This document shows positions 3,938 through 43,321 of a stretch of DNA of 45,975 nucleotides, piece by piece. The notes beneath the pieces were generated by a model that worked only from the letters and a program-made list of their open reading frames with translations, searched no databases and was not told where the DNA came from. Each line of letters begins with the position of its first letter. Position 1 is the first letter of the stretch. The DNA is from a virus. The stretch lies in IMG/VR virus record IMGVR_UViG_3300029305_000912. One strand, 5' to 3'. Both the position numbers and the translations under genes were made by a program.

Positions 3938-4994
3938 TTACAGTCCCCCTGACAGGTACCTGATTCCAAGTAAGAAGTAGATTGGAACCGACACCATTGA
4001 TGGTTGTATTTTCGATGTCAAGTACCGCTTCACAATCAAGAATTCTGGATTCCAACTGACTGATACGCACAAACAGGTTTTCGGAACCTTCCCACTGTTC
4101 ACGGATTTCCTGAAGATAGGTGTCAATAGCATCCAGAATGTAAGGTTTTGCAGATGTCCAGTCCCATCCTTCACGATAGGTCAAATCAGTTACGATGTTT
4201 ACCGTTACACCTTCAACACCTTCAACAGTCACAACATGACCGATAGGGGCAAAACCGTAACCAAGACCTTCATACGGATAAGGATCCGCTTCATTCTTGA
4301 CCATTTCAACCATTTCTTCAGACGGAACGTGAAATTCACTATCAATGAAGGTGATTTTTACAGTACCACCGCCATTCCAGACAGGTGTAATTTTTACACC
4401 ACCGATACCCTGAAGTGCGTTGACCTTTTCCATATAGTCGGCAATGTTGCCACCATATGCCTGTGAATCAAGGCTTGCAAGATATCTTGCGCGGAATGCT
4501 TCAACATCTTCATCATCTTCAGCAGGAATCAACAGTTCCGTCAGTTCGGCAGTTTTCAAACCACTGATATATTCAATAGGAATTAAAGTTCCAAGGTGTC
4601 TGTTACCTTCTGTACCTGCCGTTTCACATTCCATCTGATAAATACCGTCTTCCAGTTTTTCCGTGATAACATAGTTTAATTTGTCACAGGAAAAACGGGA
4701 ACCAATGGGAACACCCAAATCAATGGGTGTGAATGTACCCTGAAGAATTGCGTGTGTTGCCGCAATGGGATACATTCCGCGTTCTGCCGCACGTTTCTTC
4801 AGATAAAACATGGACGCAGTATCAGCAAAGGTTTCTTTCAGAATGACATCCAACTGAATGTACAGGTTTTGCAGTTCCACTGCGGCAGGTGCAATTGCGT
4901 CCCAAATGACGGATCCTTCACGTTTGTCCATGGATGACGGTACCCTTGCAAGCGCACGTTCCATGATCAAATCAAAGGTTATGTTTTCATACAT
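3927..4994 (-). CDS. Baseplate J-like protein (XkdT-like)
   Basis: 355 aa starting MYENITFDLIMERALARVPSSMDKREGSVIWDAIAPAAVEL, which is typical of the baseplate J family. Size and position match XkdT. Confidence 0.8.
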   Translation of the reverse strand: MYENITFDLIMERALARVPSSMDKREGSVIWDAIAPAAVELQNLYIQLDVILKETFADTASMFYLKKRAAERGMYPIAATHAILQGTFTPIDLGVPIGSRFSCDKLNYVITEKLEDGIYQMECETAGTEGNRHLGTLIPIEYISGLKTAELTELLIPAEDDEDVEAFRARYLASLDSQAYGGNIADYMEKVNALQGIGGVKITPVWNGGGTVKITFIDSEFHVPSEEMVEMVKNEADPYPYEGLGYGFAPIGHVVTVEGVEGVTVNIVTDLTYREGWDWTSAKPYILDAIDTYLQEIREQWEGSENLFVRISQLESRILDCEAVLDIENTTINGVGSNLLLTWNQVPVRGTVNGE

Positions 4995-15742: not shown

Positions 15743-15816
15743 TGGTTGACACAACTGGATTTGAACCAATACCAACACATTCAAAGTGTGTTGTGCTTCC
15801 GTTACACTATGCGTCA
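15743..15816 (-). tRNA. tRNA-Gln (anticodon UUG), 74 nt with an encoded CCA
   Basis: Manual cloverleaf on the minus strand:
- acceptor TGACGCA / TGTGTCA (one G-T pair);
- D arm GTGT-AACGGAA-GCAC;
- anticodon arm ACACA-CTTTGAA-TGTGT (U33, anticodon TTG, A37);
- variable loop TGGT;
- T arm ATTGG-TTCAAAT-CCAGT;
- discriminator A, then CCA. Confidence 0.85.
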
Positions 15817-20410: not shown

Positions 20411-21670
20411 TTATTCAAAGCTGAATGTTTCACCCCTGATGAATCCTTCCAACGCATAACGCATTGCATCCATTAGGTGATTGAAGTCATCAATAGGTTT
20501 ATTTAGTTTATTTTCAAACTTGTCTTTGTCCCAAGTATAGTTGGAAATTTCCGTGATGAAATTGACACACTTCGGATGAATGATAATTTCATAATCCTGA
20601 ATGAAGTCAATTCCGTTGTTCACACTATCTTTACCTTTTCGTGCGGCACGAATCCTGAAAATACCAAGGTCATACAGTCTTGCAATGGATTTCGGTTCCG
20701 CGCAATCGGCAGTGATCTTTTCTTTTGCAAAACCCATGGAAGCAATTTCAGAATAGATTGCTTCGTTTGACATACCCTTCTTATACATTTCATCAAACAC
20801 ATAAATCTTCTTGTGTGCCTGATCAATCATGCCGCAGAACAGCGCGGAAGGGTCATTTGTATAACCAAAGTCAAGACCAAACGCGGACTGGATTCCTTGG
20901 ATCTGTTTGATGTCTTCCAGATTGAACTTTTCTTCTTTCCAATTCTCAAAAATCAGACCGTCAACAATACCCCAATCACCCAAACCTGCGACACGGTAAC
21001 GCCTTGGATTATCGCGTTTCATGCGCTCAAACACTGCAAGGTCAGCTTTGTCCAACCATTCATTGCACATATAGTTTGTTGTGATTGCAAGAACGTCAGG
21101 GTCTTCTGAATGGTCAAAGAATCGTTTCTTGATCCAATGACGTTCATTCCATGGGTTAAATGTCAGCGTGATCTGCTTAAATAAATCACCTTCTGACGCA
21201 CCACGGATGGATTCATCAAGCATATCGAAATCAGATTCTTTGGTGATTTCATATGCTTCTTCAATCCACATCCAACAAAGCTGACCAACGTCAACTGTAA
21301 TGGATGTAACCTTTAACGGATCATCAAGACCACGGAAATATATCTTCTGTCCTGTCGGTTTATAGGTGAGTTCAAGCGGACTTTCCTTGATATCCCACCA
21401 AGCGTCTACACCCAAACGGTGAATTGCCCATTTCAATTCCGTAAAACAGGAATCTTTCAATGTTCGGTACGTCTTACGCACCACAAGCAGATTTGCACCT
21501 TTGTATTTCATCATATTGGTGATATACCAAAGTGCAGTTGTTTTTGATTTCTTACTTGCACGGGATCCTTTACATACACGGTAACGCCCTTTGAAGTTCC
21601 AGAACGTTTTGTATCCCTTACCAACAATCTTGGGAAGATGAAGTTTGTTAGTCTTCAAGTTCATCATCAC
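20411..21670 (-). CDS. terL: Terminase large subunit (PBSX/XtmB type)
   Basis: 419 aa. It has the Walker-A-like segment VCKGSRASKKSKT. It overlaps the TerS 3' end. Its C-terminal nuclease-like segment contains ...DDFNHLMDAMRYAL. Confidence 0.85.
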   Translation of the reverse strand: MMMNLKTNKLHLPKIVGKGYKTFWNFKGRYRVCKGSRASKKSKTTALWYITNMMKYKGANLLVVRKTYRTLKDSCFTELKWAIHRLGVDAWWDIKESPLELTYKPTGQKIYFRGLDDPLKVTSITVDVGQLCWMWIEEAYEITKESDFDMLDESIRGASEGDLFKQITLTFNPWNERHWIKKRFFDHSEDPDVLAITTNYMCNEWLDKADLAVFERMKRDNPRRYRVAGLGDWGIVDGLIFENWKEEKFNLEDIKQIQGIQSAFGLDFGYTNDPSALFCGMIDQAHKKIYVFDEMYKKGMSNEAIYSEIASMGFAKEKITADCAEPKSIARLYDLGIFRIRAARKGKDSVNNGIDFIQDYEIIIHPKCVNFITEISNYTWDKDKFENKLNKPIDDFNHLMDAMRYALEGFIRGETFSFE

Positions 21671-22082
21671 CTGAAATCACAACAGGAACCACACCTTGAA
21701 CACCAATCTTGTCTGTCAACAGTCCATAACGCTTTGCAAGTAATTCCGATGCTTTGATTCGTTCCCTTGCACCAACGCTTTTGTCAACAGATCTTGCGGA
21801 AGAATAACCATCACCCATACCTTCGACAACAATCACTTCTTCCATTTCTTCACCGCGCATGACAGAAGTCAGATACTGCATCACTTCTTCTGCGGAAGCA
21901 ATCTTTTTGGACTGCATTTTTTCAAGGCGTTCGTCAATATATGCTCGAACGTCAGGTTTCGTTAAGTTTTCAGCACCAATGACCTTTGCAGTCTTTTCCG
22001 AATAACCTGCACGAATTGCCGCCTGTGTTGCATTACAGTCAATCAAATATTCGTCACAAAATCGTTGTTGTTTTGGTGTCAC
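21648..22082 (-). CDS. terS: Terminase small subunit (Terminase_2-like HTH)
   Basis: The sequence TPKQQRFCDEYLIDCNATQAAIRAGYSEKTAKVIGAENLTKPDVRAYIDERL is a canonical TerS N-terminus. I prefer the GTG at 22082, preceded by GAAAGGGGTG. The track ORF extends to 22190 but adds an atypical 36-aa leader. Confidence 0.8.
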   Translation of the reverse strand: MTPKQQRFCDEYLIDCNATQAAIRAGYSEKTAKVIGAENLTKPDVRAYIDERLEKMQSKKIASAEEVMQYLTSVMRGEEMEEVIVVEGMGDGYSSARSVDKSVGARERIKASELLAKRYGLLTDKIGVQGVVPVVISGDDELED

Positions 22083-22192
22083 AGCATCTTCACCCCTTTC
22101 GTTTAAAGAATAAAGGTTTGCAAAGTAGGAGTTCCGCAGGATGGGCAAGTTCATACACGGACGAGGATCTTCACAAACCTTTATTGGCAAAA

Positions 22193-22220
22193 TAAAAAAC
22201 CCACAGAATTTATCTGTGGG
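22193..22220 (-). terminator. Intrinsic terminator between the late-regulator gene and terS
   Basis: The stem pairs cccacaga with tctgtggg (22200-22220) around a 5-nt loop. On the minus strand it is followed by TTTTTTA. Confidence 0.75.
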
Positions 22221-22248
22221 TCATCAAGTTACACTTTTAACTATACTA

Positions 22249-22277
22249 ATTATAACACTTATAATACTGATATAAAA
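22249..22277 (-). promoter_or_regulatory. Candidate extended -10 promoter (TGtTATAAT) upstream of the terminator and terS leader
   Basis: The minus strand reads ...agTGtTATAATtag, with TATAAT at 22254..22249 and TG at 22257..22256. The -35 is weak (TTTTAT at 22277..22272, 17-nt spacer). Confidence 0.35.
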
Positions 22278-22283
22278 GAGCGC

Positions 22284-22305
22284 GAAAAGTGCATGAAAAG
22301 TGCAT
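22284..22305. repeat. Perfect 11-bp tandem repeat (minus strand ATGCACTTTTC x2), directly after the late-regulator stop codon
   Basis: Read directly as gaaaagtgcat gaaaagtgcat on the plus strand. A TTGACA hexamer (22312..22307) overlaps the regulator stop codon just upstream. Confidence 0.9.
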
Positions 22306-22308
22306 TTG

Positions 22309-22872
22309 TCAATAGCTGAAGATTTGCTGAATGACTTCATCTGAAAACAGTCTGATCTGAAGAAGATTGATCAAACGGTTCTTGTTTCGGTTTACAGTTG
22401 AAACATCACAATCAAAGTATTCTGCAATTTCTTCACGGGACTTTCCTTCAAAGTATCGAAGACGAATCAGATCATAATATACATCGTCCTTCAGTGTATC
22501 AATTGCATTGTCAATGATACGAATAAAATTTTTAGTTGTTGCCATTGAAAATTCTATCCGTTCAATCTTTTCTTCTGCCTTTTCCATGTCGGATTTCACT
22601 TCAATGTAACCCGTATCACCTGAATAAGTCGCAACGGCACCAGACTTCTTACTCAAACCGATTTGACGGATTTCCGCAATCTGTTCTTCTTTATCCTTAA
22701 TAGCGGCTTTGAAATTATTGTAGTTATACAGTAACGTTTCAGTCTTCTGGAAAGGTGACTGTCTACCCTCTACAATCAGACTATGACGTTTTAATTCTGC
22801 AACAGCTTCTTCTGTTGCCTTTCTAACCGTATGATCAATTACTTTTAATACTTCGCCATTTAACTGTAACAC
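22309..22872 (-). CDS. Late-gene transcription regulator with a sigma-70 region-4-like C-terminal HTH
   Basis: 187 aa with a GTG start preceded by AAGGGGGT. The C-terminal sequence YYDLIRLRYFEGKSREEIAEYFDCDVSTVNRNKNRLINLL is sigma r4 / RinA-ArpU-like. It is the last gene before terS. Confidence 0.65.
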   Translation of the reverse strand: MLQLNGEVLKVIDHTVRKATEEAVAELKRHSLIVEGRQSPFQKTETLLYNYNNFKAAIKDKEEQIAEIRQIGLSKKSGAVATYSGDTGYIEVKSDMEKAEEKIERIEFSMATTKNFIRIIDNAIDTLKDDVYYDLIRLRYFEGKSREEIAEYFDCDVSTVNRNKNRLINLLQIRLFSDEVIQQIFSY

Positions 22873-22892
22873 AACGTTACCCCCTTACATCA

Positions 22893-23232
22893 TGTTCAAG
22901 GTGTTCCACGTGTTCAAGGTCTTTTCTATTACTTATATATTTTTATTTTTTATATAGTAATATAGTAATTTTTATGTTTTTATACTTACTATCTTAAAAA
23001 TATAAAGAAAATCGAAGTCACCTTGAACACCTTGAACACCGTCTGAATTTCCGCACTTTCTATATAACATAAACCGCATAAAATCAGTATTCATACGTTA
23101 TATAGAAACTTTTTGATGTGTTCAAGGTGAATTGCTCCACCTTGAACAGCACCTTGAACTTTTACGTCACCTTGAACGCAAAAATCACTTTAGACCTTAA
23201 ACCAACAAAATTCACCTTGAACAACCTTGAAC
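22893..23232. repeat. Iteron array A: at least 10 copies of TGTTCAAGGTG / CACCTTGAACA around a ~97-bp A/T core, plus a 12-bp perfect inverted repeat
   Basis: - Forward copies: 22894-22903, 22912-22921 (variant), 23120-23129.
- Reverse copies: 23019-23028, 23028-23037, 23138-23147, 23150-23159, 23168-23177, 23213-23222, 23223-23232 (variant).
- Inverted repeat: tttctatataac (23057-23068) with gttatatagaaa (23097-23108). Confidence 0.9.
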
Positions 23233-23245
23233 AGTTCCGCGACTG

Positions 23246-23443
23246 CTATACATCAGGTACATCACGAATGAACAACTGATTGTTCAGGACTTTAGCATCA
23301 TCAGCGTTCAGTTCTGACTTGATTCGATTGATTACGCATTGTTCAATTGAATATTTGTGCGCTTCAATTATAACAGTATCTTCATCACTTACTTTAACAA
23401 CAGATGTCATTTCAGCAGTGATAATCATGGTGACTTCTTTCAT
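23246..23443 (-). CDS. Hypothetical protein (last gene of the early/middle operon)
   Basis: The ATG at 23443 is preceded by GGTGGGGT. It encodes 65 aa, MKEVTMIITAEMTSVVKVSDED.... The track start at 23500 overlaps the upstream gene. Confidence 0.5.
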   Translation of the reverse strand: MKEVTMIITAEMTSVVKVSDEDTVIIEAHKYSIEQCVINRIKSELNADDAKVLNNQLFIRDVPDV

Positions 23444-23444
23444 A

Positions 23445-23747
23445 TCATTTACCCCACCATTCCAATGGTTCTTTGTGTAATTCAAGACAATAAGCATCAA
23501 AATACTTTGCCCAAGGACGGAACTTGTTCAAGTTGTACTGACCTGTAGAACCATATTTATCTGCTATGGTCAAAAGAATCTTACTTGGTTCAGTAGGTAA
23601 CCACCCATTTGGAATATTTTTCAGTAATAATTCTTCATTGATGTTTTCGTTTGTGATACACACATCAGAAAAATTACAATGGATTTCAATGTGCTTTATA
23701 GGTTCATGTAAACCATAGTGTCTGTGCATTAACTGTATATACATCAT
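23445..23747 (-). CDS. Hypothetical protein
   Basis: 100 aa, coupled to the nrdG stop by a 4-nt overlap. Confidence 0.5.
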   Translation of the reverse strand: MMYIQLMHRHYGLHEPIKHIEIHCNFSDVCITNENINEELLLKNIPNGWLPTEPSKILLTIADKYGSTGQYNLNKFRPWAKYFDAYCLELHKEPLEWWGK

Positions 23748-24244
23748 TCCATCAGATCCTTTCTTAAAACAATAGAATCACTTTCAAGGGACTTTTTCAC
23801 ATCAATGATTCGTTGGTTGGACGAACCGCGGAATTTAAGTCTTGGATCCTTCAGTTCTTCCACAAACTTTCCATCAACCAGAACGTCAATGTATTTCATG
23901 ATTGGGAATCGTTTGACTTCTTCCCACTGATATCCCGTATAACACCAGATGTCCTTGTTGGGAAAGTAGGTCTTGAATATGAAACACAAAGATGTCATAT
24001 GATAAATGTTATTCACATCTAACGGTTCACCGCCAAGAAGGGAAAGACCTGTGATGTAATCTTTTTCACACAATCTAAGGATGTCACTTCCCGTTCTTGG
24101 TGTGAACGGTTTCCCTGCATCATAGTTCCACAGTTCCGCATTGAAGCAACCTTTGCAGTGATGTGGACAACCGCTGACAAACAATGAAACACGAACGCCT
24201 TCACCGTTGGCAACATCACACGGTTTTATTTTTCCATAGTTCAT
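23744..24244 (-). CDS. nrdG: Anaerobic ribonucleoside-triphosphate reductase activating protein (radical SAM)
   Basis: 166 aa starting MNYGKIKPCDVANGEGVRVSLFVSGCPHHCKGCFN, with the CxxxCxxC cluster and the typical NrdG N-terminus. Confidence 0.9.
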   Translation of the reverse strand: MNYGKIKPCDVANGEGVRVSLFVSGCPHHCKGCFNAELWNYDAGKPFTPRTGSDILRLCEKDYITGLSLLGGEPLDVNNIYHMTSLCFIFKTYFPNKDIWCYTGYQWEEVKRFPIMKYIDVLVDGKFVEELKDPRLKFRGSSNQRIIDVKKSLESDSIVLRKDLME

Positions 24245-24381
24245 GATCTACACCTTCCAATCCAGATTGCATCCCCAATCGAAAATAACGCCCATATAGT
24301 CAAATATTCATTGGTTATAATTTCAGGTGGTATTTTACCAGTTGCCGCCATCAGAAAAACAATACATAATATTAAACTCAT
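24241..24381 (-). CDS. Small membrane protein (46 aa, below the ORF-track cutoff)
   Basis: Translated by hand as MSLILCIVFLMAATGKIPPEIITNEYLTIWALFSIGDAIWIGRCRS. The stop overlaps the nrdG ATG (ATGA). Confidence 0.4.
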   Translation of the reverse strand: MSLILCIVFLMAATGKIPPEIITNEYLTIWALFSIGDAIWIGRCRS

Positions 24382-29938: not shown

Positions 29939-31843
29939 TTACCCTTTCACAAAAATCCTGCATTTCTTACCGTTCACCCTACGGTCAACGATTTTGAAAT
30001 TAAAGTGTTTCTTGACCTGCTTTGAAAATTCACCGTTGGACAAAGGTTGAAGACTGTTAGAAAGACACCATTCGTTGTATCTGCGATATACAACACTGGT
30101 CACTTCATCTTCAATTTTGATTTCATCGTTTTCCGCTTCACGGAAGAAACCGATGATTGGATTGTTGGATTCTTCATATTCAATCAGTTCTTCCTGCATT
30201 GCTTCATTGGTTGTATACTGTCTGGATTCCAATACACGTTTCAAACCCTGTAAACCGATTTGAATCATATATTCCATGGATTCCTGACACTTCAGGTCAT
30301 CACCAATGAACGGTTTGTAATCAGGGGAATCAGGTGTGAACCTTGCGTTGAATGGAACAATTGCCAATCTTCGAAGAATTGCACCGCTGTCCCTGCCTTT
30401 ACCGATACGTGGAATACTGTTTGCACTGAAAATCAGTTTGCAGAACGGATCAAAATTGAATTTTGGTTGACCTTTATGTTCTGCGTCAATGGACTGACCT
30501 GTTACAATCTTCTTGAATTCGGCAGTGTCAACTACAAATTCATCAGAAATATCATCACCGATGTTTGCAATCTTACCGAACATCATGACTGTGGAAAATC
30601 TGTCATTCAGCTTCTTCAGATCCAGAACAGAAAGGTTTTGTCTACCAAGCAACGTTTTCACCATGTCCAAGAATGTTGATTTACCGTTTGCACCTGTTCC
30701 CGTCAGAATGAACGCCCTACCACCTGCAAGTGCGTTGGAACGATAGAAACAGGAACCAACCATTTCTTCAAGTAGCATTCTAACCGCTTCATCATGACAG
30801 GAAATGTTGTTCATGATTTGATCAGTCAGTTCGAAGTATGCATTTGGGTTCCAGTCCCACGGGATCATATTGGTGATGACATAATCAGGACTGAATGGAA
30901 GGAAATCATCATTGATAATGTCATAGATTCCGTTTCGGAATGCAATGAAGTTTGGTGGTGAAGGTTGTGTTTCTTCCCGAATCAGAATGTCAAGATACGC
31001 AAGAACTTCCTGACGTTTTGTTTTGTTTAACTGCGGAAGATGATGCAACATCACCGCTTCAATTTCCCTGTATCCGCTGATATAGATTCCGTTTTGATAC
31101 AGGTGCAACTGATCATTGATTCTGATAATGTGGTGATTGTTTTTCAAAAATACCGCGAACTTATCAAACAGGAACGTCTTACCCATGAAGAACACAGGTT
31201 TCTGAAATGCTTCATCACGCAGAATGATGTTCAATTCATCTTCAGGAAGTGGATTCTTCAACACGAAACTGTTGATGATTCGGATTGTTTCCCGTGCTTC
31301 TTCAACCGTGAAATCAGCAGATTGCAAAGTCAGAATGTAATTGAATAGACTTTGATTTCTTCCGTCACCTGCGTCCATATTCAGAAATTCTGTGGATCCG
31401 CGCACTGGAACCAACCACTTTGGAAGTTCTTCATATTCATGACCTTCTTCAATATCCCATTCAATGAAGCGTTCCTTGCCTTCAAACTTCAGGATTTCAT
31501 AAGAATTTTTCAGACCAACCTTGATGTCAGCAGTCAGACCGCAACCAAGATTTGCGTGTGTGAAACACTTCTGAATCTTGCCGTTTGTGTTCTTGAACAG
31601 GAAGTGTTTTCCGCGTGATGTCTGATAGACGCGGCAGTTCAGTTGCAGGTGTTCCACGATATCCATCAGAAGTTCCGCTTGATCCCCATCATCAATGTCG
31701 ATTAGTACCGCATCATTTGCAAGAATTCCTGCATATTCATCAAGGGACTGAACCTGTTCCAAGGTCTTGAAATCGGTACGGTCTTTGAATTTTTCTGTGC
31801 ATTTTTTATTTTTTGTTTTAACGTACCCTTTGAAAAAGGTCAT
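29939..31843 (-). CDS. Bifunctional primase-helicase: N-terminal AEP (prim-pol) domain plus a P4-alpha/D5-type SF3 helicase
   Basis: 634 aa. The AEP motifs are VLIDIDDGD and TSRGKHFLF. The Walker A is ILTGTGANGKSTF, and the Walker B-like motif is IANIGDDISDE. Confidence 0.85.
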   Translation of the reverse strand: MTFFKGYVKTKNKKCTEKFKDRTDFKTLEQVQSLDEYAGILANDAVLIDIDDGDQAELLMDIVEHLQLNCRVYQTSRGKHFLFKNTNGKIQKCFTHANLGCGLTADIKVGLKNSYEILKFEGKERFIEWDIEEGHEYEELPKWLVPVRGSTEFLNMDAGDGRNQSLFNYILTLQSADFTVEEARETIRIINSFVLKNPLPEDELNIILRDEAFQKPVFFMGKTFLFDKFAVFLKNNHHIIRINDQLHLYQNGIYISGYREIEAVMLHHLPQLNKTKRQEVLAYLDILIREETQPSPPNFIAFRNGIYDIINDDFLPFSPDYVITNMIPWDWNPNAYFELTDQIMNNISCHDEAVRMLLEEMVGSCFYRSNALAGGRAFILTGTGANGKSTFLDMVKTLLGRQNLSVLDLKKLNDRFSTVMMFGKIANIGDDISDEFVVDTAEFKKIVTGQSIDAEHKGQPKFNFDPFCKLIFSANSIPRIGKGRDSGAILRRLAIVPFNARFTPDSPDYKPFIGDDLKCQESMEYMIQIGLQGLKRVLESRQYTTNEAMQEELIEYEESNNPIIGFFREAENDEIKIEDEVTSVVYRRYNEWCLSNSLQPLSNGEFSKQVKKHFNFKIVDRRVNGKKCRIFVKG

Positions 31844-41051: not shown

Positions 41052-41123
41052 GTGTGATTGAACGGACAAGGATGTCATAGAAAGAAACAAATTTATAATA
41101 TAGAAAGGACAAGTTTGGTAATC

Positions 41124-41555
41124 ATGTGGTTAAATAATCTTCAAGAATTAAAGAAAAAGACAGGACTGACTGCAAAACAGATAGCAGAAAAAACATCGTT
41201 GCCAGAAAGGACTGTTGCTCGTATCTTTTCTGGTGAAACCGATCATCCATATGCAGACACACTTGACCTTATCGTCAAGGCTCTTGGTTATGATTTAGGT
41301 GACATCTTTGCTGACACAGGTGCAATTGTTGCCACAACAGAACTTGTTGAAATAAAAGAAAGTGTTGATGTTGTTGAAGCGGAACGTGATTTGACCATTG
41401 TTGAAAATGATATGTTGAAGGCAAAAGTTGCGGCTTTGTCAACAGAAATAGAACTTTTGAAGAAGGAACTGCAACACAAAGACGAATTACTTGCATTGCA
41501 TAATTATTATAAATCTGTAATCAGTGGAATGTCTAAAGACGCAAGTTCAAGGTGA
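41124..41555 (+). CDS. Second XRE-type HTH protein with a C-terminal coiled coil (start at ATG 41124 or TTG 41115)
   Basis: The HTH is LQELKKKTGLTAKQIAEKTSLPERTVARIFSGETDHPYADTLDLIVKALG. The heptad-like helix is DMLKAKVAALSTEIELLKKELQHKDELL. The RBS AAAGGA is at 41104-41109. Confidence 0.65.
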   Translation: MWLNNLQELKKKTGLTAKQIAEKTSLPERTVARIFSGETDHPYADTLDLIVKALGYDLGDIFADTGAIVATTELVEIKESVDVVEAERDLTIVENDMLKAKVAALSTEIELLKKELQHKDELLALHNYYKSVISGMSKDASSR

Positions 41556-41760
41556 AACCCTTGCAAACACTGGATTGTTCAAGGTGTCCTTGGTGTTCAA
41601 GGTGTTTCTATTATTATATATTTTTTATTTCAAAAAAAGAAATATTGAACCTGAATGTGACTATGCATCTATAAAAAATAAAAAAATATATAAATATATA
41701 AAATACCTTGAACACGTTGAACAGGTGGAACAAAATCATCTGTTGACCGTGTTCAAGGTG
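41545..41760. repeat. Iteron array B: 4 perfect-core and 2 variant copies of TGTTCAAGGTG around a ~99-bp A/T core, immediately upstream of the integrase gene
   Basis: - Forward copies: 41545-41554, 41577-41586, 41595-41604, 41751-41760.
- Reverse variants: 41704-41713 (TACCTTGAAC) and 41713-41722 (CACGTTGAAC).
- The left ~60 bp aligns with 22893-22955. Confidence 0.9.
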
Positions 41761-41782: not shown

Positions 41783-43321
41783 ATGGAAGTATATATCATG
41801 TACCTGCGAAAATCGCAGATGGACAGGGATTTTGAAGAATTGTCTGTGGAAGAAACATTGAAGCGTCATGAAGTAACACTGACGGAATTCTGTGAAAAAA
41901 ACAATCTGATGGTGGATGTGGTTCTTAAGGAAGTTGTTTCAGGTGAAGCGTTATCATCCAGACCACAAATGATGAAGGTATTGGAACTGGTCAATACGGG
42001 GAAATATGCAGGTGTTATTTGTATGGATATTGACCGCCTTTCCCGTGGATCATCCGTTGATTCTGGTTATATTATGCAGGTTTTGCAACTTAATGATTGT
42101 AAGATTGTTACACCAAATAAAACGTATGACCTTTTAAATGAAACGGATGAACAGTTTGCAGATATGAAGTTCATGTTCTCCCGTTACGAACTTTCTACAA
42201 TCCGCAAACGTCTAATTGCAGGACGTGATACGTCAGTTAAAGAAGGACGTTTTATGGGTTCTACTGCACCATATGGTTATAAAATTGTTAAACTCAAAGG
42301 TGAAAAAGGAAATACGTTAGAAGTTATTCCTGAAGAAGCACAGGTTGTCCGTATGATTTTTGATTGGTATACACAGGACGGTCTTGGTATAGGTCAGATT
42401 GCAGACAAATTGACCAATCTTCACATCAAACCAAGAAAAGTGAAAGAATGGTCACCAGAAGTTGTACGAAAGATGTTACTAAATGAACATTACATTGGAA
42501 AATTACCATGGAAAAAACACGTTGTGGGTAAGAAGTTTGTTGATGGTCAACTGACTAAGAAAAGATGTGCAAACGAAAATTATGAAATCCATGATGGTAG
42601 ACAGGAACCTATCATATCAGAAGAACAATTTGAATTAGCACAGCAGGTACGTCAAAGCAACAACACACGTCCTGTAAAAGTAGATTTTGAAATAGCAAAT
42701 CCACTTGGTGGATTGTTACATTGTGGACACTGCGGATCCAAAATGAAAAGGGTGACACCATCAATAAAGAATCCAAATGCAAAACCACGTTTCAAATGTA
42801 GTAGATCAAAAAGATGTGGGTGTAAATCTCATTATTTAGATGAAGTTGAAAAAGCTATTGTAAATGAAATGAAAGAATGGTTGGCAGGATATATCATAGA
42901 ATTAGAACAAAATAATGATCATAAAGATGACGGATTGGAATTGTCTTTGGAACTATTGAAAAATCGTCTGGAAGATTTGTTTGAACAACAAGATGCCATT
43001 TGTGAACTGCATGAAAAGAAGGAATATTCAGATAGATTATTCCAACGAAGAAATGCCGCAATTGAAGCTGAAATTGATCAAGTGGAATCGGACATTGATG
43101 AACTGGAACAGAAACTATCTGAACAGAAAGAAGAAGCTGACATCAAATCAAGTATCATTCCAACATCACAATACCTGTTGGACAATTACGATAATCTAAC
43201 ACCAAAAGAAAAAAATGATATTTGGAAGTTGATTTTACACAAAGTAGATTATACAAAAACTGAAGTAGGAAAAGAATTTAACATCACAATTTATCCGAAA
43301 CTATCTAATAAACCCTTATAA
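41783..43321 (+). CDS. Large serine recombinase (phage integrase)
   Basis: 512 aa. The N-terminal resolvase-type catalytic segment is MEVYIMYLRKSQMD (Ser in RKS). The recombinase domain is followed by a zinc-ribbon motif (CGHCGSKM...CSRSKRCGC) and a long coiled coil. Confidence 0.85.
   Translation: MEVYIMYLRKSQMDRDFEELSVEETLKRHEVTLTEFCEKNNLMVDVVLKEVVSGEALSSRPQMMKVLELVNTGKYAGVICMDIDRLSRGSSVDSGYIMQVLQLNDCKIVTPNKTYDLLNETDEQFADMKFMFSRYELSTIRKRLIAGRDTSVKEGRFMGSTAPYGYKIVKLKGEKGNTLEVIPEEAQVVRMIFDWYTQDGLGIGQIADKLTNLHIKPRKVKEWSPEVVRKMLLNEHYIGKLPWKKHVVGKKFVDGQLTKKRCANENYEIHDGRQEPIISEEQFELAQQVRQSNNTRPVKVDFEIANPLGGLLHCGHCGSKMKRVTPSIKNPNAKPRFKCSRSKRCGCKSHYLDEVEKAIVNEMKEWLAGYIIELEQNNDHKDDGLELSLELLKNRLEDLFEQQDAICELHEKKEYSDRLFQRRNAAIEAEIDQVESDIDELEQKLSEQKEEADIKSSIIPTSQYLLDNYDNLTPKEKNDIWKLILHKVDYTKTEVGKEFNITIYPKLSNKPL

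Follow-up and report, generated by a model that had tools for sequence, protein, structure and literature searches.

What does a 373-bp cluster of repeats do between the early and late genes of an uncultivated phage, and which protein reads it? We examined this for the 45,975-bp virus record IMGVR_UViG_3300029305_000912 from IMG/VR (the whole stretch is called the window below), where array A, a non-coding module, separates the gene for a late regulator from the last of the early genes (23246-23500, minus strand). A second module, array B, carries the same repeats, or iterons, beside the integrase gene; the two modules enclose the early operon and are 18.3 kb apart. Judged from sequence comparison, array A is very probably a replication origin of a temperate phage of gut Bacillota, of the type known from Staphylococcus aureus pathogenicity islands (SaPIs) and satellite phage P4, and its reader is very probably the winged helix at the C-terminus of the primase-helicase that the phage itself encodes. 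Most likely this is an origin of a familiar kind in a phage family not studied before, here detached from the gene for its initiator and duplicated.

A scan of both strands of the whole window for the 11-mer TGTTCAAGGTG, allowing at most one mismatch, gave 23 matches against 1.99 ± 1.22 expected, and none of 100 shuffled sequences got to 23. Ten of the matches fall in array A (22893-23233). Four are perfect reverse copies starting at 23019, 23028, 23138 and 23213, two are perfect forward copies (22893-22903 and 23119-23129), and four carry one mismatch (starts 22911, 23150, 23168 and 23223); a further copy at 22902 has two. The original prediction, made by a model from the letters and their open reading frames (ORFs), had also reported ten copies in this gap (22873-23245), and its perfect and imperfect positions agree with ours, except that the forward copies it placed at 22894 and 22912 start at 22893 and 22911. 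It had taken the unit to be an 11-mer; the repeats are real, but the true unit is the 9-mer CCTTGAACA, copies of which abut in a 9-bp register. The left inner set reads TGTTCAAGG/TGTTCCACG/TGTTCAAGG, with a degenerate middle unit, and the right set is CCTTGAACA/CCTTGAACA, inverted.

These inner sets, at 22893-22921 (plus strand) and 23019-23038 (minus strand), face each other head to head across a core whose length of 97 bp had been predicted correctly, whereas its description as almost pure A/T was too strong (87.6% A+T). The large inverted repeat proposed for the bracketing copies exists and goes further, its dyad symmetry reaching into the core with 46-nt arms of 78% complementarity, but the left side has three units rather than two. 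Ranked by duplex free energy, no 100-bp window of the genome is less stable than this core (ΔG -98.7 kcal/mol), and the core of array B comes second (-100.1 kcal/mol), against a genome-wide mean of -131 ± 5.7 kcal/mol and a third-lowest window of -110.7 kcal/mol. The two cores are also the two most A/T-rich 97-bp windows of the genome. Between the core module and the outer iterons lies an inverted repeat, described earlier as a perfect 12-bp one (23057-23068 with 23097-23108), which proved to be real and to extend to 15 nt at 93%. DnaA-box matches number 22 in the window against 18.7 expected, with none inside the arrays, and this lack of enrichment fits a self-loading initiator.

Perfect copies had been said to occur only in arrays A and B. 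The scan bore out the clustering but not the exclusivity, as one more lies at 21692-21702 (minus strand) within the small-terminase gene, where it encodes IGVQGV. It is missing at the equivalent site in the close relatives L101 and L103 (L-numbers denote individual loci of relatives) and is therefore probably a chance match. Two one-mismatch copies, TGTTGAAGGTG, also stand in 9-bp register at 4208-4227 (minus strand) in a tail-region ORF, encoding VEGVEG; this tandem pair is not in the closest relative, L233. Neither the single copy nor the pair was accepted as functional iterons, both being coding and not conserved in the closest relatives.

The candidate initiator is a 634-aa primase-helicase whose stop codon lies 6.7 kb upstream of the start of array A. 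Its earlier identification as a P4-alpha-like enzyme at 29939..31843 stands: residues 299-605 match the NCBIfam model TIGR01613 ('phage/plasmid primase, P4 family') with 178 bits against a cutoff of 108.7, and Pfam recognises D5_N, DUF5906 (a superfamily 3 (SF3) ATPase) and Pox_D5. By sequence, the sole significant relative in the PDB is PriRep5 of SaPI5 (7OLA; E 4e-40, residues 243-614). When an AlphaFold2 model of the helicase (mean pLDDT 72, C-terminal domain 75-89) was compared with the PDB by Foldseek, 7OLA again came first (E 6e-17, TM 0.63), followed by poxvirus D5/E5 and the PrimPol of African swine fever virus (ASFV). The modelled protein ends in a winged helix, with helices at residues 582-595 and 603-614 and a beta-hairpin wing at 617-632, and its last 91 residues alone align to PriRep5 residues 683-746. 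This alignment falls within the PriRep5 domain 676-790, deletion of which abolishes binding to the origin (PMC9371898). Residues 1-235 gave no Toprim or DnaG match, nor any other, in Pfam or NCBIfam. Invariant residues D49, D51 and H80 in a beta-rich fold, together with fold alignments to the poxvirus and ASFV primase-helicases of the archaeo-eukaryotic primase (AEP) type, suggest that the N-terminal domain is an AEP (prim-pol) primase and not the DnaG type of P4 alpha.

The C-terminal domain (CTD) of this helicase varies together with the iteron. Compared with L017/L018, the sole relative lineage with the same iteron, the window protein has a CTD identity of 0.94 and an identity of 0.86-0.89 over the rest; against relatives with other iterons the corresponding values are 0.31-0.46 and 0.5-0.7. 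The CTD is the best-conserved segment in the first comparison and the least conserved in the second. The same holds among helicase pairs whose cores are at least 90% identical, where mean CTD identity is 0.98 (minimum 0.90) for the 119 pairs with the same iteron and 0.77 for the 101 pairs with different iterons.

An association scan was then made on 21 near-identical loci anchored on L072, 15 with the iteron AACCGTAAC and six with AACTGTAAC, over about 16.7 kb of testable sequence with roughly 1350 common variant sites. Perfect segregation with iteron class was seen at 37 sites, of which 18 fall within the final ~118 nt of the helicase gene and the other 19 within the array. Between these two patches 490 nt could be tested, and not one of their 60 common variants follows the class, which rules out a single block swap. 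Across the 21 loci no site segregated with iteron class in the downstream DUF1492-type regulator, terS or terL, or in the ~8 kb upstream of the helicase (SNF2 to polymerase); the result for the late regulator and terS argues against either as the iteron reader. The helicase sites correspond to seven class-specific amino-acid changes, C>G and NI>KG before or at the start of the putative recognition helix and V>S, K>R, G>D and S>L in the wing. This comparative evidence suggests that the CTD of the helicase sets iteron specificity.

In relatives, the layout and the A/T core are conserved, whereas the iteron sequence varies by clade. The arrangement of inverted iterons around an A+T core recurs in ~100 related contigs with about a dozen different iterons. 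All 14 late-regulator relatives in IMG/VR having upstream DNA show the same layout in the same place, namely an outer set, a hairpin-capable inverted repeat, inverted inner sets around ~95-100 bp of A/T-rich DNA, and further copies; the outer set is similar, with three reverse copies and one forward, and the iteron drifts from CCTTGAACA through CCTTGAACC to TCTTGAACC. With the helicase as starting point, de novo k-mer clustering detected one array in 55 of 63 loci, at a distance of 0-7.5 kb downstream of the helicase gene, and in these the inverted sets flank a gap of 87-120 bp with about 80-90% A+T. A stricter detector found arrays in 42 of the 54 loci of a second set. In a detector control on ~1 Mb of mostly unrelated DNA there were seven firings, five on true relatives and two on marginal five-copy clusters. 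The clade iterons include CCTTGAACA/C, TCTTGAACC, GTGACAC, AACCGTAAC, AACTGTAAC, AGTTACA, AACCGCTACC, CAGCTACA, AAGTGTAAC, ATCTGTAACC, AACCGTAGTTA, AACCGTAGACA, TTACTACAC and GACAGGC. As in SaPIs, the array of certain relatives adjoins the helicase gene: the distance is 28 bp in L325, 168 bp in L304/L305 and 0 bp in L334, and in L092/L093 the array overlaps the 3' end.

The interval from the outer iterons to the core repeatedly holds an inverted repeat able to form a hairpin, or else a degenerate motif resembling the iteron (CTTCAAACCCTTG...), with a sequence that varies by phage; sites of this element are at 23057-23108 and 41553-41575 in the window, in the upstream regions of L001-L015 and at 6400-6430 of L236. 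Long coding tandem repeats lie ~8 kb upstream of the helicase in many relatives (L035 690-900, L047 2140-2490, L039, L069, L077 and others), with 5 to >30 copies of a 15-nt unit (AACACCGGGAACAGG-like) or an 18-nt unit (GATGCCAAAGTTTGGGGC-like, of hexapeptide-repeat type). The upstream clusters of AACACCGGG-type and GATGCCAAAGTTTGGGGC-type were rejected as iterons, being such coding 15-nt and 18-nt repeats. A collection scan for CTTGAACN{0,2}CTTGAAC was likewise rejected for counting arrays: among the matches listed (119 stretches) most were single chance matches and only 5 were real relatives.

Array B holds six copies of TGTTCAAGGTG at up to one mismatch, three of them perfect, and is paralogous to array A in layout; part of the core sequence aligns too. 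The first hypothesis of the original prediction, an iteron origin read by the primase-helicase at two loci, is supported by the sequence comparisons made here, but they do not establish its idea that array A is one half of a bipartite origin; each array is a complete module, unlike P4 crr. At least 20 genomes of relatives, belonging to several iteron classes, have a B-type module in the same position beside the integrase, and it adjoins the integrase whether this is a serine or a tyrosine recombinase. Modules A and B usually have the same iteron within a genome, in classes as unlike as CTTGAAC, GTGACAC and AGTTACA. In the CTTGAAC clade the B module is present, with the same variant as A, wherever DNA past the cI-like 3' end is available: ACCTTGAACA is in both modules of the window and of contig 3300024272_000136, and ACCTTGAACC in both modules of contig 3300021431_000034, L251, L253, L256 and L317. 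In L327, a prophage in a Bacilli metagenome-assembled genome (MAG), the iteron of A and B alike is GTGACAC, and each module is 7.6 kb from the helicase gene, one on each side. B-type modules also occur in the GTAAC, CCGTAGTT and AGTTACA clades on contigs that carry their A modules, and the AGTTACA genomes have 13 iteron copies in A and 12 in B. Among more distant loci, several showed no B array within 4-7 kb of available upstream DNA. We infer that the same protein also reads array B, a complete module in its own right, which could be another origin or, like crr in P4, an auxiliary site acting in cis. At 41588-41611, in the interval between the cI-like gene and the integrase gene, two array B iterons make a terminator-like hairpin (CCTTGGTGTTCAAGG then TGTTTCTATT, with a T run).

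The closest known counterpart in layout is the SaPI origin, in which an AT-rich centre is flanked by 6-12 iterons, two or more on each side and the two sides oppositely oriented, and which is bound without ATP by a self-loading helicase (PMC9371898). Array A shares this layout, with its ten copies, inverted inner sets and 97-bp, 87.6% A+T core, and the two systems have in common an SF3 helicase with a D5_N tier and a C-terminal winged helix for short iterons, a scheme that involves neither a loader nor DnaA boxes, and a specificity that varies with the CTD, here as judged from the comparisons above. They differ in the iteron, a 9-mer in 9-bp register here and 5-6 nt in SaPIs, and in the position of the origin, which directly follows the rep ORF in SaPIs and lies 6.7 kb away here, with a ThyX/NrdD/NrdG cassette between; this second difference is softened by the relatives that keep the origin directly after the helicase gene. 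Further differences are the second full module beside the integrase and the nature of the element, a complete temperate phage and not a satellite.

The likeness to P4 lies in an initiator of TIGR01613, covering the helicase and the C-terminal part, and in iterons at two loci that bracket the initiator's early operon, near int/attP and the early/late boundary. The P4 repeats had been given correctly: in record NC_001609 the type-1 repeat TGTTCACC is found both in ori, at the early/late boundary, and in crr, by attP/int and the end of alpha. TGTTCA is common to P4 TGTTCACC and phage TGTTCAAGG. However, crr consists of two 120-bp direct repeats whereas array B is a single inverted-iteron/A+T-core module; in P4 the two loci are both required in cis and are separated by about 4.7 kb, compared with 18.3 kb in the window phage. 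The primase of P4 alpha is of DnaG type (PMC2777425), whereas the N-terminus of the window helicase has no DnaG match and resembles an AEP. Iteron plasmids (Rep_3/RepA/pi-type) also have short repeated initiator sites beside an A/T-rich unwinding element, but their repeats are direct, 17-22 bp long and on one side, with DnaA boxes and a non-helicase initiator; here the sets are inverted on both sides, DnaA boxes are not enriched and the proposed initiator is a helicase. No Rep_3-like protein was found among the ORFs scanned. The Bacillus phage SPP1 has two separate loci, oriL and oriR, with repeated boxes by an AT-rich stretch, bound by G38P. G38P, an origin-binding protein, depends on a separate loader and a DnaB-type helicase, and both its family and its boxes are other than those of the window phage.

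On the model of these systems, the 634-aa SF3 enzyme of the P4/D5 family, with its SaPI PriRep-like architecture, would act as the initiator, its C-terminal winged helix recognising the 9-bp iterons CCTTGAACA. With their inverted orientation the inner sets would bring initiator complexes to both flanks of the 97-bp A/T core, facing head to head; the core would then melt and the helicase would load itself, after which its own primase and the family-B-like polymerase of the phage would begin bidirectional synthesis. The outer iterons may serve as extra binding sites, and array B would be a second complete module with the same protein as reader. This mechanism is classical and its novelty is therefore modest; what is distinctive is an origin apart from the initiator gene, a module duplicated across a large phage family and a clean natural specificity series.

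Several observations weigh against this interpretation. The loci of the association scan are related, and all six T-type loci (AACTGTAAC) could represent a single lineage; only about 1 kb separates the two segregating patches, and the cI-like repressor and part of the leftmost HTH (helix-turn-helix) genes lie outside the well-covered region of the scan. L327 shares the putative recognition helix LSNGEFSKQVKK with the window although its iteron, GTGACAC, is unrelated, and a specificity code in the single recognition helix was rejected on this account; the helix alone does not set specificity, so the wing or neighbouring residues must contribute as well. B arrays in GTAAC-class genomes mix iteron variants. 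In one genome (contig IMGVR_UViG_3300044856_000113, loci L070 and L350) array A is C-type and array B T-type: the L070 array is of AACCGTAAC-type, in agreement with the helicase C-terminus, and the L350 array is a 12-copy AACTGTAAC-type array. As the latter is nearly identical to the A array of other phages, module exchange by recombination is suggested. Finally, nearly all clades place array A directly 5' of the late regulator and array B 5' of the integrase module, which a pure origin model does not require. That this placement is kept across unrelated iterons, unrelated integrases and different late-regulator families suggests selection for position. Both modules might in addition be replication-coupled gates, making the integrase and the late genes depend on origin firing, although we consider this unlikely. 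Each module is in a read-through position immediately ahead of a gene whose expression must be timed: array B separates cI from the integrase, and array A separates the early operon from the sigma-like late regulator. Arrays loaded with the initiator could there act as roadblocks or activators, and looping or handcuffing between A and B could also limit re-initiation.

The main rival to a replication origin stems from the same placement, both modules being directly 5' of timed genes. The arrays could be operators for a transcription factor (the cI-like XRE protein, a Cro-like HTH protein or the sigma-like regulator) that co-controls the late regulator and the integrase from promoters in the cores. 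The constancy of the neighbours would suit this, since in almost every relative array A directly precedes the late regulator, sigma-r4-like or DUF1492, and array B the integrase module of either type; so would TTGAAC within the iteron, which resembles a -35 hexamer. A promoter scan, however, found no sigma-70-type promoter in the array A gap, and the downstream regulator is identical across iteron classes, with no segregating site. The early genes in the tested ~8 kb upstream of the helicase do not segregate either, some arrays abut the helicase gene with no regulator after them (L092/L093, L325, L304, L334), and the anatomy, with ten to thirteen sites arranged as inverted sets about the least stable DNA of the genome, is that of an origin. 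An HTH operator, the second hypothesis of the original prediction, is disfavoured by the lack of co-segregation of the regulator and the tested early genes, the cI-like gene being outside the tested region, and we regard operator arrays in general as improbable.

A packaging site of cosB or pac type, bound by the small terminase, is very improbable. Array A does lie ~0.7 kb upstream of terS, a usual place for cos or pac, and one stray perfect iteron is inside terS, but each genome has two arrays, 18 kb from one another, terS has no site that segregates with iteron class, the stray copy is not conserved in relatives, and the iteron co-varies with the helicase instead. An equally small chance attaches to a function in RNA, with the inverted iterons forming a long-range stem in a read-through transcript that controls translation or termination ahead of the late-regulator gene. 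The minus-strand transcript 22860-23250 folds far better than shuffles (z = -6.0) and the array B hairpin resembles a terminator, yet a low folding energy is automatic for any inverted DNA repeat, so the strength of the fold is uninformative. The related proposal that a stem hides the ribosome-binding site (RBS) is not supported, as the RBS, AAGGGGG at 22880-22886, is outside every repeat arm; it does lie between the innermost iteron and the GTG start codon at 22872, as had been stated, at an iteron distance of 20 nt, not 21. No terminator was found in array A, and an Rfam search of the whole window matched only a tRNA, with nothing in the array A region. A stem would also leave unexplained the outer copies in direct orientation, the second array and the co-variation with a protein domain. 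Least probable of all is a miniature mobile element with terminal inverted repeats inserted twice, for although A and B have the same layout and share some core sequence, each sits at a syntenic position in clades with completely different iterons, iteron copies extend beyond the supposed terminal repeats, and no target-site duplications or further copies were seen.

Coordinates of the two modules, the candidate initiator and neighbouring genes in the window
Feature	Coordinates	Strand	Basis or remark
Array A, entire non-coding module	22873..23245	.	No credible ORF; 10 iterons at ≤1 mismatch
Inner left iteron set, three 9-mers	22893..22921	+	Scan of letters
A/T-rich core, proposed DNA-unwinding element	22922..23018	.	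97 bp, 87.6% A+T
Inner right iteron set, two abutting perfect copies	23019..23038	-	20-nt arms, 90% complementary
A/T-rich hairpin-forming inverted repeat, core module to outer iterons	23057..23108	.	15-nt arms, 93%
Outer iterons (forward 23119; reverse 23138, 23150, 23168, 23213, 23223)	23119..23233	.	Scan
Array B, second origin-like module	41544..41760	.	Iteron scan, self-alignment with array A
Array B left set	41576-41604		Three 9-mers
Array B A/T core	41605-41703		99 bp, 86.9% A+T
Array B right set	41704-41732		Three inverted 9-mers
Array B outer copies	Starts 41544 and 41750		
Primase-helicase gene, 634 aa, proposed initiator	29939..31843	-	Pfam D5_N, DUF5906, Pox_D5
C-terminal winged-helix domain, aa 546-634, proposed iteron reader	29942..30208	-	AlphaFold2 model and PriRep5 alignment
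Late regulator, sigma-70 region-4/RinA-like, directly downstream of array A	22309..22872	-	Profile matches
terS, small terminase	21648-22190		phrog_51 match; array A ~0.7 kb upstream
XRE-type cI-like repressor gene, ending at array B	41058..41555	+	Profile matches
Large serine integrase gene, start 23 nt after array B	41783..43321	+	Profile matches

The minus strand carries the genes from 1 to 40.9 kb. Its early part, from 40884 down to 23246, comprises genes for an SNF2 helicase, an AAA_24/PD-(D/E)XK protein, the family-B-like polymerase and the primase-helicase, followed by the nucleotide cassette; past array A the order is late regulator, terS, terL and portal, and in other clades the counterpart of the late regulator is a DUF1492 protein. 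The segment 23744-29932, with genes for NrdG activase, NrdD anaerobic ribonucleotide reductase and ThyX and small ORFs, separates the helicase gene from the origin, and in relatives that do not have the nucleotide cassette the origin is 0-3 kb from the helicase gene. A tRNA-Gln (anticodon TTG), on which ARAGORN and Rfam agree, lies at 15743-15816 (minus strand) in the late structural region. Megablast of 21600-24300 against 50,697 GenBank phages gave no match, so no annotated relative was usable. Related prophages are found in Bacilli, Erysipelotrichaceae and Lachnospiraceae MAGs and in Acetatifactor; the hosts are Bacillota.

With the reading preferred here, a replication origin served by the primase-helicase, an origin and an initiator are assigned for a large family of temperate, uncultivated phages whose hosts are Bacillota of gut and rumen, a family comprising hundreds of IMG/VR contigs and prophages in Lachnospiraceae, Erysipelotrichaceae and Bacilli MAGs. 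Its natural variants form a specificity series, in which a one-base difference in the iteron is paired with seven substitutions at or just before the helix and in the wing. Such a series could reveal how SF3 self-loading helicases read DNA, and could yield orthogonal replicons for anaerobes that are hard to engineer. The conserved second module by the integrase echoes ori and crr of P4 in complete phages, and makes testable the idea that two initiator-binding loci are a general trait of this initiator family.

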